From Cupriavidus necator (GTDB lineage Bacteria; Pseudomonadota; Gammaproteobacteria; Burkholderiales; Burkholderiaceae), in contig NZ_CP066018.1 of the NCBI RefSeq assembly GCF_016127575.1, positions 600,001-632,000 of the forward strand: DNA of 32,000 nt, written 5' to 3'. Under the pieces are notes generated by a model, which ran no database searches, was not told the origin of the DNA, and was given only the letters and a program-made list of their open reading frames with translations. Of this stretch, positions 950 through 6,506 are shown piece after piece. Each line of letters starts with the position of its first letter. The stretch's first letter is position 1. A program made the position numbers and the translations under genes.

Positions 950-2314
950 TTATCGTGTGGTGAACCGGCGCAGGCCGTCCGGCTCGAAGGTCTTCTCCTT
1001 CAGGCGCCCTTCCCTCGCGGCGAGCCAGTCAGGCTCCTTGTGGCCGGCGACGACTCGGTCGAGCACGGCGCGGCGGGTCTGGTGGTCATAGCTGGTATTG
1101 GCCGCCCAGACGCAGGCCGGCACTTCCCAGGCCATGTAGGGACCCATCTCGGTGGTGCGCCAGACCTTGCCCTGCGCGTCGTACATGTCCTCCACCAGGA
1201 TCGTCCACGTGTCCTCGTCGATGTAGAACACGCGCTTGGGGAAGGTATGCCGCATGCCTTGCTTGAGCGTGGCCTCGACCACCCACATCCGGTGCAGCTC
1301 ATAGCGCGTCAGGTCGCGGCTGAGGAACTTCGGCTTGACGACTTCATCGACCTTGTTCGCCGAAGAGTTGACCCGGTACGTGTTGTAGGGCACGTACATC
1401 TCCTTCTTGCCGGCCAGCTTCCAGTCATAGCGGTCTAGTGGGCCGTTGAACTGCATGTACTGGTCGACGGTCAGCAGGTTCTCGGTGTTGAGCTGCGGGG
1501 CGTCGTACTGGTATGTCGGCGCGCGGCGCACGCGGCGCTGGCTCGCGAAGTACAGCCAGACGTCGTTGGCCTCGGAGAACTTGTACTGCGTCAGGGTGGC
1601 ATCCCCCGCGATCGAGGGCGGGCTGGTAAACGTGTTGAGGTACAGGCTCTCGATGCCGCGGGCGTCGTCGACGCCCTTGTTCGACGGCGACCACATCGGC
1701 GACATCTGCCATTCCTGCTGGCCAAGCGGCTCCCCAATGCTGTCGGTGCCCTTCGGCGGGATGTAGCCCGCATAGCTCATCTGGAATCCCTCTCCTTTCC
1801 AGTGCAGCTTGTGGTTCCACATGGCTTCGGCGCCGTTCTGCGGAATCGGGAACGGCACGGCGGCGCCGATCGCCTCGGCGAGGTCCTGGCCGTTGGCGCC
1901 AAGCTTCGCCGTCGTTGCGTTCTTCTTCGTCCGCTCGTAGAAGAAGTCGGGGAAACCGCAAGAACGGTGGGTCGGATAAACATCCATCCGATAACCCGGG
2001 ATCGTCTTCACCATTTCGATCTGTCCGGGGGCAAGCTTGTCCTTGTATTTGTCGACATTGGACGCGTCGATCGAAAGTACGCGCTTGTCATTCGCGTACG
2101 GGTCGGGGCGCGCCGTGCCGGGCTTCCAGCCACCCGGTGCCTTCATGTCCCCGCCGGTCCACTCCGGAATCGACCCGTCCTTGTTACCGGCCCGTTCGGC
2201 ACCCACCGGAGTGAGGTCCTTGCCGAGCCGGCCCGCGTCCTGCTCGGAGGCCGCGGCATAGGCCGCTCCGCCGAACGCAAGGGTCACGCTGAGGAACAAC
2301 GTCTTGTATCTCAT
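950..2314 (-). CDS. DUF1329-family periplasmic/outer-membrane lipoprotein-sorting-like protein
   Basis: Track ORF 950..2386, trimmed to ATG 2314 (MRYKTLFLSVTLAFGGAAYAA signal peptide, AGGAGA Shine-Dalgarno just upstream). The motif LTPVGAERAGNKDGSIPEWTGG is characteristic of DUF1329. Confidence 0.85.
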   Translation of the reverse strand: MRYKTLFLSVTLAFGGAAYAAASEQDAGRLGKDLTPVGAERAGNKDGSIPEWTGGDMKAPGGWKPGTARPDPYANDKRVLSIDASNVDKYKDKLAPGQIEMVKTIPGYRMDVYPTHRSCGFPDFFYERTKKNATTAKLGANGQDLAEAIGAAVPFPIPQNGAEAMWNHKLHWKGEGFQMSYAGYIPPKGTDSIGEPLGQQEWQMSPMWSPSNKGVDDARGIESLYLNTFTSPPSIAGDATLTQYKFSEANDVWLYFASQRRVRRAPTYQYDAPQLNTENLLTVDQYMQFNGPLDRYDWKLAGKKEMYVPYNTYRVNSSANKVDEVVKPKFLSRDLTRYELHRMWVVEATLKQGMRHTFPKRVFYIDEDTWTILVEDMYDAQGKVWRTTEMGPYMAWEVPACVWAANTSYDHQTRRAVLDRVVAGHKEPDWLAAREGRLKEKTFEPDGLRRFTTR

Positions 2315-2369
2315 CTGAGTCTCCTGTCTGGCATGGCAACGAAGTGCCTCGCTTCGTGTGTTTTTTTCG

Positions 2370-2439
2370 GTAGAACACGTTACCAAACTTAGGTAACAAT
2401 GACAAAGAACAAAAGAAAAAAAGAGCTAGGGTATTCCCT
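2370..2439 (-). promoter_or_regulatory. Conserved 70-nt promoter/operator module, copy A (upstream of the DUF1329 operon)
   Basis: Read on the minus strand: TTGTCA (2405..2400), 17-nt spacer, TAACGT (2382..2377). The spacer contains the dyad TACC-N7-GGTA. A distal block is AGGGAATACCC. Gap-free alignment to 4084..4153 gives 49/70 identities by hand count. Confidence 0.5.
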
Positions 2440-2750
2440 GCGCGTTTGGCTGCGATGCTCGCAAACGCACCCGGTACCGTGCGCAGCGGCGAACCAATGG
2501 CACGAGGCACGGCTCGCGGCTGCTGGGGTGGCACCGGAAGCCGCAAGCCAACGCTGTCAGTCAGACCGCCGTAGTGATCCGGCGATGCCCCATGCCGCCC
2601 GAGGCTGTGCTGGAGATACACAGGTCCTCAAGGCCGCACGGCCGGGCACAGGTGTTGACCGTCCCGGCAGTGCAGGCCCGCCTGCCCAGCTCTGGAAATC
2701 GTGATCCACGGACTTCGACTGCGCTCGAGGCGCGCGCAGGACAACCAGGC

Positions 2751-3167
2751 TCAGGCGCCGCCGCTGCCAGCTACCGCCACCGCCTGAATCTCGATGCACA
2801 GCTCGGGAAGCGCCAGCTCTGTCACCCCCACCGCAGTCCAGGACGGATAACGGCTCGGCAGGTATTCGTCCTTGACCTTCGTGAAGGCCTCGATTTCCTG
2901 CCGCAGGTTGGTGTGATAGGTCGTCAGCTCGACAACATCCTCCAGGCTTGCGCCTGCCGCTTCGAGGACCGCTTTCAGGGATGCAAAGGCCAGCCGAGCC
3001 TGTGCCTCCATGCCCTCGCCGGGCTTCATCGCTGCGTCTAGCCCAACCTGGCCCGACACCCAGATGGTGTCGCCCACGCGGGTCGCGGGGGCGAAATGGT
3101 AGGCGTCGTAGAGCGGCTGGGTGCCGGGCGGAATGACCGGCTGCCGTTTCATCGTCGTGGTTGTCAT
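2751..3167 (-). CDS. RidA/YjgF/TdcF-family enamine/imine deaminase
   Basis: Track ORF 2751..3206, trimmed to ATG 3167 (MTTTTMKRQPVIPPG..), 18 nt after the stop of the upstream gene. Sequence ..APATRVGDTIWVSGQVG..LEDVVELTTYHT..PSWTAVGVTELALPELCIEIQAVA is typical of the Rid family. Confidence 0.85.
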   Translation of the reverse strand: MTTTTMKRQPVIPPGTQPLYDAYHFAPATRVGDTIWVSGQVGLDAAMKPGEGMEAQARLAFASLKAVLEAAGASLEDVVELTTYHTNLRQEIEAFTKVKDEYLPSRYPSWTAVGVTELALPELCIEIQAVAVAGSGGA

Positions 3168-3184
3168 GATGTCGGTATCGTTTA

Positions 3185-4018
3185 TCAGATGAGTTGGCGG
3201 AAGCATGGCGCACGGAAGGGATCACCTGCCTTCAGCGATGCCAGCTCCTCGACGTACAGCACACCCGCCGGCGTGAAGCCCGAATCGCTGTGGTCCGGCA
3301 ACGGACTGAAAACCGCGTCATCGCCGAAGAAGCGCAAGACCAGCGTATGGCGGTCCGGGAAATCGGCGTCGACAGCACCCCCGCCGTGCAGCGAACCCGG
3401 GTGCAGCAGCAGAACATCTCCGGGCTGCGTAGCCCAGGAGAGGATGTCGTAGGCATTGGGATCGATGCGGCGTTCGGCCTCGATGTCAGGCAGCCGCGGC
3501 CAGACCCCACCGCCGTGCAACGGCTCGGTCGGGTCGTCGGGGTTCTGAAAGGTGCTGCCGTCGTGGCGCGTACCCAGGTACGAGCCCCTGACGATCTCCA
3601 GCGCATTACGCTTGGGGACCGCCTCGAAGCTGATCCACGCGTTGGCGAAGTGCTTTCCCCCCCAAGGCAGGTAGGAGGTGTCTTGGTGCCAGGGCGAGCG
3701 CCCGGCCCGGCCTCCCTGCTTGAGGAACAACTCTTCCGCAAAGTACCAGACATGTTTAGAGCCCCAGAGATCGGCGAACAGCTGGCCGAACGGGAGCGAG
3801 GCGACCAGCTCATCCAGCCGCCCCTTTGCGAATGGATTGGCGTTATCGACGTGCGACCGTTGCACGGAGCCGTCAAACAGGCTATGAGCGTTGGGCCCCG
3901 GGTTCTCGATGCCCCAGTCAAAGACCTGCCTGCACATGGCTAACTGTTCCGCGTTGAGACAGCCTTCGATGAGGACGGCACCGTCCTCATCGAAGGCGCT
4001 GCGCTTGGATTCATCCAT
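3185..4018 (-). CDS. Phytanoyl-CoA dioxygenase (PhyH) family Fe(II)/2-oxoglutarate-dependent oxygenase
   Basis: 277-aa ORF with the HxD iron motif (SPWHQDTSY) and a distal His region (LLLHPGSLHGGG). Overall PhyH-like layout. Confidence 0.85.
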   Translation of the reverse strand: MDESKRSAFDEDGAVLIEGCLNAEQLAMCRQVFDWGIENPGPNAHSLFDGSVQRSHVDNANPFAKGRLDELVASLPFGQLFADLWGSKHVWYFAEELFLKQGGRAGRSPWHQDTSYLPWGGKHFANAWISFEAVPKRNALEIVRGSYLGTRHDGSTFQNPDDPTEPLHGGGVWPRLPDIEAERRIDPNAYDILSWATQPGDVLLLHPGSLHGGGAVDADFPDRHTLVLRFFGDDAVFSPLPDHSDSGFTPAGVLYVEELASLKAGDPFRAPCFRQLI

Positions 4019-4083
4019 GGATGCTCTCCTGATTCTTCATTAAGCCCGGCGCCCGGTCACGTGCGCTTCCGGTCGCCTCGTTT

Positions 4084-4153
4084 GTAGAACAACCTACCAA
4101 CATTAGGTCATGATGACAAAGATAAGTCAGAAGTAAAAGGGCGGGTATTCCCT
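4084..4153 (-). promoter_or_regulatory. Conserved 70-nt promoter/operator module, copy B (between the PhyH operon and the divergent amine oxidase gene)
   Basis: Same blocks and identical spacing as copy A. Minus-strand reading: TTGTCA, N17 (containing ACC-N7-GGT), TAGGTT, GTTCTAC, plus distal AGGGAATACCC. Confidence 0.5.
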
Positions 4154-4280
4154 ATCCCACATGGACTCTCCTCGCCTACGCAGGAATCAACTTGGGCTCG
4201 CGATTCATAATTTTGACTTGTTTGTGTTGTTGACCTATATTTGCCGCGAGCATGCCAATCATTTAACTTTTGTCCTAACA

Positions 4281-5831
4281 ATGCACGCGAAGACACGTGA
4301 AGATGCGCTGGAAGTCGATGCCGCACCGGCAGACATCGTGAACCGCGACACAGTCGCACTGACCCGACGCCGCCTCCTCGGCGCGGCTGCGGCGGCTAGC
4401 GCTGCAACGCTGCTGGCAGGCACACCACGCACAGCGAGTGCAGCGCCGCGGGTGAAGGGCGCCGGCGCCGCATCTGCGGGGCGCGACGTGCTCGATGTCG
4501 CGATCATCGGTGCCGGACTGGCGGGCCTGACCGCCGCACGCGACCTGAAACGCGGCGGATGTGACACGTTCGTCGTCCTGGAGGCACGTAGCCGTGTCGG
4601 CGGCCGCACCTACAACCATGACCTTGGCAACAGCGTGGTCTCGGAAGCCGGCGGGCAGTGGATCGGGCCCGGCCAGACCGCCATTGCTGACCTGGCGCGC
4701 GAGCTCGGCGTCGACACCTTCGAAACCTATTACCAGGGCAAGACCGTGTTCCTGGCCGGCGACGTGCGCGTGGCGCAGGATCTCCAGGGCGGCGTCGGCG
4801 CCCAGGGAAAGGTCGCCGCCAAACTCAGCGAGCTGGCGGGCCGCGTACCCAGCGGCGCCCCCTGGACAGCGGCAAACGCGGCGGAACTAGACAAGCTGTC
4901 GCTCGGCGACTGGCTGGCACGGCAAGACTTGAGCAACGAGGAAAAATTCTCCTTCAGCCTGGCCGCAACCCTGTCGCTCGGCGCGCAACCGGCGCAACTG
5001 GGACTGTTGCACTACCTGTCGGTGATCAACAGCGCTAACAGCGACTACGACACACTTGAGAGGATCAAGGGCGGCGCCCAGGAGACGCGCTTCGTCGGCG
5101 GCGCGCAGATCCTCAGCATCCGGATGGCACGCGAACTTGGCCACAAGGTGCGGCTGTCCTGCCCGGTACGCAAGATCGTTGGCTGGGATCGCGACATTGT
5201 CGAATTGCACACCGACCAGGGCGTGGTACGGGCGCGCCACGTGATCGCCGCACTGAATCCGGCGCTATGCCAGCAGGTCGTCTTCGACCCGCCGCTGCCC
5301 GCCGGACGCGCGCAATTGCATCGGTTCTGGCCGGCGCACGCGCCCATGCGCAAGACGGCGCATGTCTATGCACGGCCCTTCTGGCGCGACAAGGGATTCA
5401 ACGGACAGGTTGTGCCGCTGGACGGCCCGCTGATCTGGTCGGTCGACAACTCGCCGCCAGACGGCTCGGTCGGCGTGATCAGCGCATTCGTCAAGCCTGG
5501 CTTCCTGCCCGCCGAGCCCAAGGCTGCCGAACGCATCCTCTCGGCCATCTATGCCCAGGCGTTCGGGGACAAGGCGTTGAAGCCGACGCAATACCACGAC
5601 CTCGACTGGGGCAAGGTCGATAACTGGTCGATGAGTTGCATCAACCCGATGCCGGCGGGCTTCTGGACGAAGCTGGGCCAGTACCTGCATCCGCCGACAG
5701 GGCGGCTGATCTGGTCTGGCACCGAGACGGCCGACATCTGGGCCGGCGCCATGGATGGTGCCGTGCGCTCCGGCCACCGCGCCGCCCTGCAGGTGCTGGG
5801 CGCCCTGGCATACCCGGTTCGGGAGGCATGA
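4281..5831 (+). CDS. Flavin-dependent amine oxidase family protein with twin-arginine (Tat) signal peptide
   Basis: Track ORF 4161..5831, trimmed to ATG 4281. Tat-type signal LTRRRLLGAAAAASAATLLAGTPRTASA. FAD dinucleotide fold DVAIIGAGLAGLTAARDL...VLEARSRVGGR typical of the MAO/amine oxidase family. Confidence 0.85.
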   Translation: MHAKTREDALEVDAAPADIVNRDTVALTRRRLLGAAAAASAATLLAGTPRTASAAPRVKGAGAASAGRDVLDVAIIGAGLAGLTAARDLKRGGCDTFVVLEARSRVGGRTYNHDLGNSVVSEAGGQWIGPGQTAIADLARELGVDTFETYYQGKTVFLAGDVRVAQDLQGGVGAQGKVAAKLSELAGRVPSGAPWTAANAAELDKLSLGDWLARQDLSNEEKFSFSLAATLSLGAQPAQLGLLHYLSVINSANSDYDTLERIKGGAQETRFVGGAQILSIRMARELGHKVRLSCPVRKIVGWDRDIVELHTDQGVVRARHVIAALNPALCQQVVFDPPLPAGRAQLHRFWPAHAPMRKTAHVYARPFWRDKGFNGQVVPLDGPLIWSVDNSPPDGSVGVISAFVKPGFLPAEPKAAERILSAIYAQAFGDKALKPTQYHDLDWGKVDNWSMSCINPMPAGFWTKLGQYLHPPTGRLIWSGTETADIWAGAMDGAVRSGHRAALQVLGALAYPVREA

Positions 5832-6506
5832 ATGAAATACAAGCGCCCTGTTCTCGTGGCGGCTGCGGCCGTGGTGGCGGTGGCCGCCTTCATCGTCCCC
5901 GACCTCGTGGGCTATCACCGGTTCGGGACGGCACTGGATAACCAGGCCGTAGCCAGCCAGACCGATGGTGGACGCTGGCCGCAATTCCCGGAGACCTGCT
6001 TCGCCTGCCATGGCCCGCGCGGTCAGTCCCACAATGCCGAGTACCCTGCCCTGGCCGGCCAGCCGGCGGCTTTTATCGAGGCGCAGTTGCGCGCCTTCGC
6101 CAGCGGGCAGCGCGACAGCCCGACCATGGGGCCGCTCGCCAGGAACCTGACTGATGAGCAGATCGGGTTGCTGGCAGCCTATTACGCAAAGCAGGCGCCC
6201 ACAGGTAGCCCGGATGTCACGGCCAGCGCCGCGCTCGAGGCGCGCGGCAAGGCTGTGGTCCAGGCGCGCAGTTGCCAGGCCTGCCATGCCGAAGGGTTGA
6301 CCGGAAAGGACCTGGCACCACGCCTCGCCGGCCAGGGCGAGAGCTACCTTGGGCAACAGCTTGCCGCGTTCAAGAGCGGCAAACGCCATGACGCGTCCGG
6401 CGCCATGGACAGCATTGCCGCCGCCTTGTCGAACGAAGACATCCCGGCAGTGGCCCGCTACCTGGCCAGGATGTCGCCTGACCGCCGGGAGATCGGCGCC
6501 CGATAG
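5832..6506 (+). CDS. Di-haem c-type cytochrome (c4-like), N-terminal membrane anchor or signal
   Basis: Two CxxCH motifs (CFACHG, CQACHA). Hydrophobic N-terminus VLVAAAAVVAVAAFIV. Its ATG (5832) follows the oxidase TGA (5829-5831) with no gap. GGGAGG Shine-Dalgarno lies inside the oxidase 3-prime end. Confidence 0.85.
   Translation: MKYKRPVLVAAAAVVAVAAFIVPDLVGYHRFGTALDNQAVASQTDGGRWPQFPETCFACHGPRGQSHNAEYPALAGQPAAFIEAQLRAFASGQRDSPTMGPLARNLTDEQIGLLAAYYAKQAPTGSPDVTASAALEARGKAVVQARSCQACHAEGLTGKDLAPRLAGQGESYLGQQLAAFKSGKRHDASGAMDSIAAALSNEDIPAVARYLARMSPDRREIGAR

Follow-up and report, generated by a model that had tools for sequence, protein, structure and literature searches.

The window analysed here, a 32,000-nt stretch of the Cupriavidus necator contig NZ_CP066018.1 (positions 600,001 to 632,000, forward strand; positions below are those of the window unless prefixed C1 or C2), covers part of a catabolic gene cluster of ~35 kb for amines and acyl-CoAs. 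On its minus strand, a gene for a DUF1329 (LolA-like) protein (950–2314; Pfam PF07044, E 7e-134) heads a nine-gene operon, DUF1329-DUF1302-MMPL/RND-BNR-DUF5938-acyl-CoA ligase-thiolase-DAO-TetR, assigned to the putative promoter P_A. Genes for a PhyH-family dioxygenase (3185–4018; PF05721) and a RidA protein (2751–3206; PF01042) form a second minus-strand operon (2751–4018) assigned to P_B, and, diverging from it on the plus strand (4281–6506), genes for a Tat-signal flavin amine oxidase (amine oxidase 2, 4281–5831; PF01593) and a di-haem cytochrome c (5832–6506; PF00034) are assigned to P_AO2; the amine oxidase start at 4281 was inferred from the AT-rich, promoter-like region at 4161–4280. 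Outside the window, P_C precedes genes for an acyl-CoA dehydrogenase, amine oxidase 1, a cytochrome c, an APH kinase, and an SDR, and its transcript possibly extends into the adjacent pntAB genes. The types of product encoded by these operons are those of the AmeABCD-type DUF1302/DUF1329/RND/BNR envelope system and of the NicA2/CycN-type cytochrome c-dependent flavin amine dehydrogenases (PMC6394551). The accessible text of those reports treats the proteins, whereas the feature described here is a shared promoter/operator, and no such element turned up in our literature searches.

A preliminary description of the locus had reported that two 70-nt segments, 2370–2439 (copy A) and 4084–4153 (copy B), align without gaps at 49 of 70 positions and, read on the minus strand, share the pattern AGGGAATACCC-N20-TCTTTGTCAT-N4-ACCTAA-N2-TTGGTA-N3-TGTTCTAC; both statements were reproduced, and the exact matches to the pattern in the 7.4-Mb genome are these two. 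When each 70-mer was scanned without gaps against all 14.8 million positions of the genome on both strands, a third full copy, C, was found at C1:589089-589158, 10.9 kb to the left of the window. Copies A, B, and C, the putative P_A, P_B, and P_C, are identical to one another at 49–52 of 70 positions (best unrelated genome position, 36/70), and a position weight matrix of the promoter part scores 57–59 bits in the three copies and 14 bits at the next unrelated site. All three copies have one orientation relative to their downstream genes and point into operons of the same cluster, with the operon starts 55–73 nt away: 55 nt for A (DUF1329 ATG at 2314) and 65 nt for B (PhyH ATG at 4018), as first described, and ~73 nt for C. 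Weak operator-like matches were also observed grouped on C2 near 1.50 Mb, where no paralogous cluster lies. The region 2200–4400 had no Rfam match at E ≤ 1 when tested for a riboswitch or leader, and a literature search for the motif strings returned unrelated eukaryotic matches only.

Each cassette is laid out as an upstream palindromic element, a −35 hexamer TTGTCA, a 17-nt spacer that contains a dyad, an extended −10 of the form TGn-TAnnnT, and a second TGWYCTA repeat at about +1. In copy A (2370–2440, minus strand; orthologous copies occupy the same position in genomes G015, G061, and G067), these are the palindrome CAGGGAATACCCTAG (2426–2440), whose core AGGGAATACCC (2429–2439) is invariant across copies and is followed by a T-rich tract (2411–2425); the putative −35 (2400–2405), nearly invariant in 44 aligned copies and 17 nt from TAACGT; the putative operator dyad TTACCTAA-G-TTTGGTAA (2380–2396), which has 6/7 mirrored pairs, lies in the spacer, and overlaps the putative extended −10 TGG-TAACGT (2377–2385); and the repeat GTTCTAC (2370–2376), predicted to span roughly −6 to +1, which follows the first TGACCTA-type element by 19 nt and is a full TGACCTAA in Oxalobacteraceae. 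Copy B (4084–4154, minus strand), inside the divergent intergenic region, has the upstream element TAGGGAATACCCGCC (4140–4154; core 4143–4153), the putative −35 TTGTCA (4114–4119), a putative operator TGACCTA-ATG-TTGGTAG (4094–4110), a putative extended −10 TGG-TAGGTT (4091–4099), and GTTCTAC at about +1 (4084–4090). Numbering relative to +1 is predicted throughout; a literature search found no transcription start site data set for this organism.

The reading of TTGTCA-N17-TAnnnT as a sigma-70 promoter is borne out at the level of prediction, as its geometry is conserved as far as Oxalobacteraceae, which carry TTGTCT-N17-TATTAT in the same frame. The three copies have TTGTCA or TTGGCA, 17 nt (within a 16–18 nt spacing), and TAACGT, TAGGTT, or TATCGT with TGn upstream of each, and the −10 hexamers are weak (3–4/6) and fall below the detection of a consensus promoter scanner. 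The ACC-N7-GGT dyad reported earlier in the spacer is real, but it is better described as an element of the TGACCTA-N3-TAGGTCA type. Some copies show it in perfect form, and its right half also forms the predicted −10. The dyad symmetry score of the 17-nt spacer element is 0.52, whereas shuffled columns give 0.25 ± 0.09 and attain 0.52 in 0.25% of cases; a perfect palindrome, TGACCTA-TGT-TAGGTCA, is present in G089, the copy A orthologue of G061 is a perfect GTTACCTAA-G-TTAGGTAAC, and G085, which has two TetR paralogues, has the symmetric variant TTGAC-N7-GTCAA. A sigma-54 promoter (GG-N10-GC; TGGCAC-N5-TTGC) was considered and rejected: in TTGGTAnnnTGTTCTA, positions 12–15 past the GG read TCTA rather than TTGC, and the GG itself is unconserved (TTTTGTA in many copies). 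None of the LexA-box, LysR T-N11-A, lux-box, Fis, or sigma-54 consensus sequences fitted the blocks on inspection.

On the opposite strand, the divergent P_AO2 (4213–4247, plus; TTGACT-N17-TATATT, 10/12 in a promoter scan) has a TGACCTA at 4231–4237 that overlaps its −10, and its motif TTTTGACTTGTTTGT..G(A/T)CCTATATT is kept in seven species and is module-like in G022, G059, G085, and G089. By these sequence features, P_AO2 is a worn fourth version of the cassette that would drive the amine oxidase 2 and cytochrome c genes, and the predicted regulon is three full cassette copies plus this degenerate fourth at the amine-oxidase promoter. The proposal that A and B are homologous promoter/operator modules that link separate operons into one regulon thus stands, there being three copies, none elsewhere, and conserved blocks.

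Comparison with orthologous promoters in other species and genera found the same blocks conserved. Within the genus, 78 genomes were searched with a sequence profile of the cassette; 12 of them carry it, with 3–6 copies each, and every copy lies at one of the corresponding junctions of the syntenic cluster. An orthologue of the cluster's TetR gene is present in all 12 cassette-bearing genomes, and 64 of the remaining 66 lack both, a co-occurrence that is partly trivial owing to physical linkage. Genome G076 carries a cassette with TGACCTA and lacks a TetR orthologue at E ≤ 1e-40, a nearby TetR having just 28% identity, and in G062, which has no full cassette, the TetR homologue has lost 5 residues of its helix-turn-helix. 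Beyond the genus, TetR orthologues of 54–66% identity are followed directly by the cassette in Burkholderia, Paraburkholderia, Pandoraea, Trinickia, Caballeronia, and Ralstonia, and the same adjacency (TetR identity again 54–66%) is found in Massilia, Duganella, Janthinobacterium, and other genera, so that the order of TetR gene and then cassette is shared by ~13 genera in two families. In the 500 nt that follow the TetR gene, the TetR strand has 43 occurrences of T[GT][AT]CCTA among 63 Burkholderiaceae loci and 20 among 15 Oxalobacteraceae loci; counts on the opposite strand are 5 and 0, respectively, and reversed-motif controls give 2–7. Because these orthologues hardly differ in the helix-turn-helix region of the TetR protein, conservation of the operator is to be expected too. 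A class-wide search for TetR orthologues gave only matches of 33% identity; one of these has TGACCTAA and ACCTA/TAGGT repeats upstream, which is no more than suggestive.

It was rightly stated earlier that this part of the window has no candidate regulator gene, but the TetR gene sits just outside the window in the same operon: at C1:589200-589883 (TetR_N and TetR_C_6 domains), it ends the P_A operon, and copy C follows immediately downstream of it. Small open reading frames in the intergenic gaps of the cluster, inspected for hidden regulators, had no Pfam match. A CRP-like factor linking the neighbouring hybrid kinase and receiver-cyclase genes was also considered and set aside; no cNMP-binding or CRP gene was found nearby, and the kinase pair is missing beside the cluster in G085 and G002.

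We consider it probable that the element is a cluster-specific promoter-operator cassette repressed by the cluster's own TetR. When the inducer is absent, TetR made from the last gene of the P_A operon would bind the TGWCCTA elements, which flank and overlap the −10, such that bound TetR would occlude RNA polymerase at the four promoters. An acyl-CoA or a lipophilic amine is the probable inducer; as a pathway intermediate, it would release the repressor and turn the operons on together. Because the repressor gene lies within the P_A operon, the circuit would be negatively autoregulated. The TetR-tetO, RutR, PsrA, and AtuR circuits are alike in having a TetR gene embedded in the regulated cluster, an autoregulated regulator, a ~17-bp dyad over the −35/−10 spacer, and an operator common to several promoters (the last three as predicted here). 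The half-site core TGACC resembles that of the RutR box (TTGACCAnnTGGTCAA), but the spacing differs (TGACC-N7-GGTCA in the cassette, N4 in the RutR box), and the cassette also differs in its second, directly oriented repeat at +1. RutR and PA3006, which we take to be PsrA, are among the weak PDB sequence matches of this TetR (best E-value 1.5e-7), which has low identity to any characterised TetR. Several observations count against repression by this TetR, among them the mismatches between cassette and TetR in G076 and G062. Most copies have a weak right dyad half, 4/7 mirrored pairs being the mode. The TGACCTA elements of Oxalobacteraceae resemble direct repeats, TGACCTAT-N11-TGACCTAA, and variant promoters of G062 and G076 have three TAGGTCA repeats; these 19- or 22-nt periods (22 nt in G062 and G076) form a layout that is unusual for a TetR dimer. 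The invariance of AGGGAATACCC in A and B, where the hairpins are weak and B is divergent, is outside what TetR repression accounts for.

The AGGGAATACCC block is probably not part of the operator: it is the core of a hairpin followed by a T-run that was probably, in ancestry, the terminator of the TetR unit. At copy C, ~35 nt past the TetR stop codon, the hairpin has 11 bp and −15.5 kcal/mol (z −4.8) and is followed by U8, such that GACAGGG-AATA-CCCTGTC and its T-run would be the intrinsic terminator of the P_A/TetR transcript just before P_C, and would have been carried along as the cassette duplicated. Different or compensated stems occupy the orthologous position in other genera (CGACAGGC-GAT-GCCTGTCG, ACGACAGGCC-GC-GGCCTGTCGT, GGCGGCGG...CCGCCGCC, and GACAGGGC-CCGT-GCCCTGTC), each with a T-run after it, as is expected of compensatory change in a terminator. 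Copy C is thus like other intrinsic terminators placed just upstream of the next promoter, whereas A and B differ from a pure terminator in retaining an unchanged 11-nt core in an eroded hairpin, with B-type copies lying in divergent regions: the hairpin of A (−7.3 kcal/mol) is no different from shuffles, and that of B (−7.6 kcal/mol, z −0.3) is weak and in a divergent region, so it cannot serve as a terminator. The invariant core in A and B may therefore have an extra sequence-specific role, for example as the site of a second factor or a UP-like element. We tentatively suggest, as a possibility that we would not favour, that the core and T-tract are the site of a second, unlinked host factor of Cupriavidus and Burkholderia grafted onto the former terminator hairpin, which would couple the cluster to a PhyH2-RidA2-DAO2/porin locus where the 18-mer AGGGAATACCCGCCCTTT recurs in the TetR2-porin intergenic region (D site), beside PhyH, RidA, and DAO paralogues. 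If so, one short sequence would be both terminator and transcription-factor site, and the second factor might also link the cluster to a genus-wide conserved CAGGGAATACCCGAGG site upstream of an rRNA-like promoter. A genome-wide search gave no convincing palindrome or operator sites beyond the cluster and the D site.

The same observations bear on an alternative in which the palindrome, centred near −64, is the true regulatory site and TGACCTA is mere promoter context; the protein on the palindrome would be either TetR of the cluster or an unlinked factor that works as an activator of class-I type or as an anti-UP repressor. The near-complete invariance of AGGGAATACCC among the 44 aligned copies, A and B included, next to a flanking linker that is ~45% diverged, speaks for it, as do the recurrence of the 18-mer at the D site, the identity of the core among the divergent B-type copies in 10 of the 11 species, a setting in which a terminator is useless, the ~15-fold excess of CAGGGAATACCC over its reversed control across the genus, and the weak −10 hexamers, which fit activator dependence. 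The distribution of the core, however, argues otherwise: GGG(G)AATACCC is found in 39/63 Burkholderiaceae loci and in none of the 15 Oxalobacteraceae loci, all of which retain TetR, with its conserved helix-turn-helix, and the TGWCCTA promoter, and carry unrelated or compensated hairpins with T-runs at this position, the signature of a terminator selected for structure. A dimeric DNA-binding protein would, moreover, sit poorly with arms whose spacing can be 4 or 5 nt in a single genome, and the palindrome is missing altogether from the A-type promoters of G022, G059, and G060. TetR2 (C1:575683-576339), which lies beside the D site, was rejected as the binder, being absent from G085, G002, and all other genera with perfect palindromes; its intergenic region holds a separate perfect palindrome, CGATTCGCGCGAATCG, that is a better candidate for a TetR2 operator. 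We judge this alternative unlikely.

Less likely again is that the regulator is not TetR but an unlinked protein that binds direct repeats (AraC/XylS-, OmpR-, or LuxR-like) at two TGWCCTA repeats 19–22 nt apart. Such a protein would suit the direct repeats of Oxalobacteraceae, the 22-nt-period variants of G062 and G076, and the possession of the element by G076 without a TetR orthologue, and a LuxR-type activator is believed to control the DUF1302/DUF1329 genes of Pseudomonas putida (bioRxiv 10.1101/2020.07.04.188060). No AraC/XylS-, OmpR-, or LuxR-like gene, however, is present in the conserved cluster of any genome examined, perfect 7-3-7 palindromes exist, the repeats lie on both sides of the −10 and extend over +1, where repressors rather than activators would sit, and TetR is the sole regulator gene that travels with the element across ~13 genera.

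It is very improbable that the copies lack a common specific regulator and are alike only through recent duplication of a promoter or through gene conversion, the blocks being RNA-polymerase contacts only. The −35 and extended −10 do account for two of the five blocks, and promoter reuse within prokaryote genomes, as "putative mobile promoters", is common (PMC3575422), but the spacer TGACCTA and the +1 GTTCTAC are not polymerase elements and yet are among the most conserved columns in two families, and the divergence of the linkers shows that conservation is block-specific. Like putative mobile promoters, the cassette is a homologous promoter found upstream of non-homologous genes in one genome and common to several genera; unlike them, its copies are confined to one functionally coherent cluster, carry a specific (putative) operator, and are not associated with mobile elements. 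The reading as a generic dispersed repeat (REP, MITE, or similar), which has the inverted repeat as its one point in favour, is to be dismissed given three copies in 7.4 Mb with a next best match of 36/70, their restriction to one cluster in one orientation relative to genes, and the lack of an Rfam match.

With repression by the cluster's own TetR as the preferred reading, the cassette would define how a conserved catabolic cluster is controlled in cis, in an organism of biotechnological importance and in its relatives; the cluster unites an envelope system for lipophilic substrates and acyl-CoA chemistry with amine dehydrogenases that are periplasmic and cytochrome c-linked. The sharing of one operator is a tidy but ordinary bacterial way to co-regulate several operons. 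Four promoters, an operator, and a candidate repressor make the substrate of the cluster approachable, either with reporter fusions or with purified TetR against amines and acyl-CoAs, and the cassette could supply a new orthogonal inducible promoter/repressor pair for Cupriavidus engineering. It also seems to have spread inside the cluster, to three to six copies depending on the species, and thereby offers an evolutionary example of a promoter-operator cassette, terminator included, that was copied within a cluster and recruited operons into a regulon.

The likeness reported between copy A (2370-2439) and copy B (4084-4153) was confirmed on the minus strand, where the two align without gaps at 49/70 positions with the identities falling in the blocks AGGGAATACCC, TCTTTGTCAT, ACCTAA, TTGGTA, and TGTTCTAC. 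Scanning of the source genome (G000; 7.4 Mb in three replicons, C1 and C2 among them, 66% G+C, with the window at C1:600001-632000) added a third full copy, C, on the minus strand at C1:589089-589158, 10.9 kb left of the window. The three copies share 49-52/70 positions with one another and at most 36/70 with the rest of the genome when each 70-mer is slid over 14.8 million positions, and the whole-genome weight-matrix scan proposed in the preliminary description, run with the promoter part, recovered A, B, and C at 57-59 bits, the next unrelated site scoring 14 bits. Given these gaps, the likeness lies far beyond chance and a generic dispersed repeat is ruled out. The modules end 55 nt (A) and 65 nt (B) from start codons, as had been described, and ~73 nt (C). 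We are thoroughly confident that the copies represent a promoter cassette that is shared within, and specific to, this cluster and that defines one regulon.

Pfam scans placed the cassettes, whose putative promoters we call P_A, P_B, and P_C, in a single large cluster with three minus-strand operons: P_B is followed by PhyH and RidA; P_A by DUF1329, DUF1302, an MMPL/RND transporter, and a BNR propeller, and later by DUF5938/saccharopine-dehydrogenase-like, acyl-CoA ligase, thiolase-like, DAO-type FAD oxidoreductase, and TetR-family regulator genes; and P_C by acyl-CoA dehydrogenase, amine oxidase 1, cytochrome c, APH-type kinase, and SDR genes, directly after which lie pntAB, which may be co-transcribed with them. 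Divergent from copy B lie, as described, amine oxidase and cytochrome c genes, the oxidase (amine oxidase 2) having a Tat signal. This part of the window indeed holds no regulator gene, but the TetR-family gene (hereafter TetR) lies just outside, at C1:589200-589883, where it closes the P_A operon directly upstream of copy C. The DAO-TetR gap (L002 3890-4050; C1:589890-590050) contains a perfect TATAAT, lying ~95 nt before the TetR start codon with no obvious -35, which may be a weak constitutive promoter keeping a basal repressor level.

A sequence-only profile built from nine cassette copies found the cassette in 12 of the 78 genomes of the genus that were scanned, at 3-6 copies each, in every case within the corresponding syntenic cluster and at matching gene junctions; G076 carries one further single copy, without the upstream palindrome. 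All 12 cassette genomes possess a TetR orthologue, and 64 of the 66 others lack both cassette and TetR. Beyond the genus, the cassette is again found downstream of TetR orthologues (54-71% identity) in Pandoraea, Trinickia, Burkholderia, Paraburkholderia, Caballeronia, and Ralstonia, and a diverged cassette follows those of the Oxalobacteraceae Massilia, Duganella, Pseudoduganella, Janthinobacterium, Rugamonas, and Noviherbaspirillum; conservation of the blocks in orthologous promoters, on which the preliminary description had staked the element, thus holds within the genus and in other genera. Chromosome 2 of Cupriavidus sp. TMH.W2 (G085; 304-326 kb, L042/L043) carries an expanded cluster. 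Its six cassettes include a back-to-back pair in which both members have a perfect palindrome of their own, TetR and acyl-CoA dehydrogenase are each represented by two paralogues, and the DUF1329/DUF1302/RND/BNR set is accompanied by a second, divergent one.

Across 44 non-redundant copies read in the direction of transcription, the cassette comprises a palindrome (GACAGGG-AATA-CCCTGTC, the central 4-5 nt varying among AATA, TATT, TAAT, GAATA, and others), a run of 6-9 T, a putative -35 (TTGTCA or TTGGCA), a 17-nt spacer containing TGACCTA(A/T), a putative extended -10 (TTGGTA-nnn-T, read as TGn-TAnnnT), and GTTCTAC, which lies at about -6 to +1, 19 nt beyond the first TGACCTA. A consensus promoter scanner did not call the A, B, or C promoters because their -10 hexamers match at only 3-4/6 positions. 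The sigma-70-like reading TTGTCA-N17-TAnnnT is nevertheless upheld by the constant geometry among copies and by the same frame in Oxalobacteraceae (TTGTCT-N17-TATTAT), and the predicted promoter assignment has good comparative support. The cassette region had no Rfam match. At 2339-2366, within the DUF1329 5' leader, a hairpin ACGAAGTGCCTCGCTTCGT is followed by GTGTTTTTTT, reading on the plus strand as a terminator antisense to the leader and on the minus strand as an A-run and hairpin in the 5'-UTR.

A degenerate fourth putative promoter, P_AO2, lies on the amine oxidase 2/cytochrome c side at 4213-4247 (plus strand). The start of the amine-oxidase gene is most likely 4281, since 4161-4280 is AT-rich and promoter-like; there the scanner found TTGACT-N17-TATATT (4213-4241; 10/12 consensus positions), whose -10 is overlapped by TGACCTA (4231-4237). 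The promoter, TTTTGACTTGTTTGT...G(A/T)CCTATATT, is kept in seven species, and G022, G059, G085, and G089 still have the full cassette layout at this position. Immediately before the start codon (4266-4283), with no obvious Shine-Dalgarno sequence, lies a further TGTCCTAA inside TTTTGTCCTAACAATG, kept in G061, G067, and G073; the string CCTAACAATG is common to this stretch and the second repeat of Oxalobacteraceae cassettes.

The ACC-N7-GGT dyad noted in the spacer is real, but forms only part of a larger 17-nt element of significant two-fold symmetry, with a mean mirrored-column complementarity of 0.52 versus 0.25 +/- 0.09 for shuffled columns (0.25% of shuffles reach 0.52). Perfect palindromes occur at the amine-oxidase promoter of G089 (TGACCTA-TGT-TAGGTCA) and in copy A of G061 (GTTACCTAA-G-TTAGGTAAC), and one cassette of G085, the genome with two TetR paralogues, carries TTGAC-N7-GTCAA as a symmetric variant; in C. 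necator the degeneracy of the right half (TTGGTAn) stems from its second task as the putative extended -10. We searched the 500 nt downstream of each of 80 TetR orthologues for T[GT][AT]CCTA. The 63 Burkholderiaceae loci gave 43 occurrences on the TetR strand against 5 on the opposite strand, and the 15 Oxalobacteraceae loci 20 against 0 (reversed-motif controls, 2-7); by this sequence comparison the element tracks the TetR gene. The helix-turn-helix region (RAQGxRTRN...ISxSNLQYYFPTR) is nearly invariant among orthologues, and a conserved operator is therefore expected. Elements in Oxalobacteraceae and in variant promoters of G062 and G076 resemble direct repeats with 19- or 22-nt periods, so that two binding modes are possible, one dimer on the pseudo-palindrome or two dimers. 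The "type II" variants of the latter two genomes (L087 5564-6214 in Cupriavidus oxalaticus JPY540, G062; L059 17576-18329 in G076) consist of CAGTGTTTTCCCT, ~20 nt, TTG(A/C)TT, and three T(A/G)GGTCA direct repeats (TGACCTA in reverse complement) whose period is exactly 22 nt; the G062 TetR homologue is missing 5 residues in the helix-turn-helix, and G076 lacks a TetR orthologue and has a divergent TetR of 28% identity.

We identify the upstream palindrome as having originated as an intrinsic terminator for the TetR transcription unit, because in copy C it forms a hairpin of 11 bp (-15.5 kcal/mol, z -4.8) with a U8 run behind it, ~35 nt past the TetR stop codon; because the orthologous position in other genera has hairpins with compensated or unrelated stems and T-runs (CGACAGGC-GAT-GCCTGTCG, ACGACAGGCC-GC-GGCCTGTCGT, GGCGGCGG...CCGCCGCC, and, in Burkholderia metallica, GACAGGGC-CCGT-GCCCTGTC); because loop length varies (4 or 5 nt); and because the GGG(G)AATACCC core is present in 39/63 Burkholderiaceae but 0/15 Oxalobacteraceae loci. 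The hairpins of copies A and B (-7.3 and -7.6 kcal/mol) are no better than shuffled sequence. B-type copies sit in divergent intergenic regions, and in 10/11 species their 11-nt core, AGGGAATACCC, is unchanged while outer stem and linker have diverged, a constancy for which the terminator reading does not account. The core may serve a second factor encoded elsewhere or act much like an UP element, and a sequence-specific protein site at the palindrome seems rather unlikely. TetR2, a separate gene, was rejected as the binder because it is absent from many genomes with perfect palindromes.

Of the cassette, the TetR2-porin gap (D site; L001 8558-8640, C1:576558-576640) has just the upstream half, CGCAGGGAATACCCGCCCTTTCTATTT, and it shares the 18-mer AGGGAATACCCGCCCTTT with the cassettes. 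Next comes a perfect palindrome of 16 bp, CGATTCGCGCGAATCG, that is probably TetR2's own operator; the site adjoins paralogues of PhyH (59%), RidA (64%), and DAO (68%) and is kept in species without the cluster (G019, G078). Outside the window, an enoyl-CoA hydratase-like gene has CAGGGAATACCCGAGG (C1:1985569-1985585; orthologues in L088-L098) directly past its stop codon, ahead of an rRNA-type promoter, TTGCAA...TAATAT-TCGCCCCC. At least 12 species of the genus keep CAGGGAATACCCGAGG amid varying flanks; it has a GGGnTATT inverted partner 13-16 nt further on, and contains a 12-mer ~15 times commoner across the genus than its reversed control. It shares the 17-mer GATCAGGGAATACCCGA with CAACCCGATCAGGGAATACCCGAATCCGGTTG (C2:366360-366400), a 32-nt imperfect palindrome ~85 nt upstream of a LysR-type gene.

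Beyond the directly observed copy number, position, conservation, symmetry, and TetR linkage, we propose that the TetR protein would bind the TGWCCTA elements that flank and overlap the -10 of the four promoters and block RNA polymerase, that a pathway metabolite would release it, that the circuit would be negatively autoregulated because the repressor gene is the last of the P_A operon, and that the copy C hairpin would separate the P_A transcript from P_C; we consider this scheme as a whole fairly probable. The scheme works in the way known from classical pairs of TetR repressor and operator in catabolic clusters. TGACC, the core of the half-site, recalls the RutR box, although the half-site spacing of that box differs from the cassette's, and solved TetR structures are only distantly related to the cluster TetR (best E-value 1.5e-7). 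Promoter reuse has been described (PMC3575422), and the instance here is one cassette spread to several junctions of a cluster; our literature search for the cassette motif found no description. The cassette is real and well supported, though not surprising; it offers a route to the cluster's substrate as well as a potential inducible promoter system.
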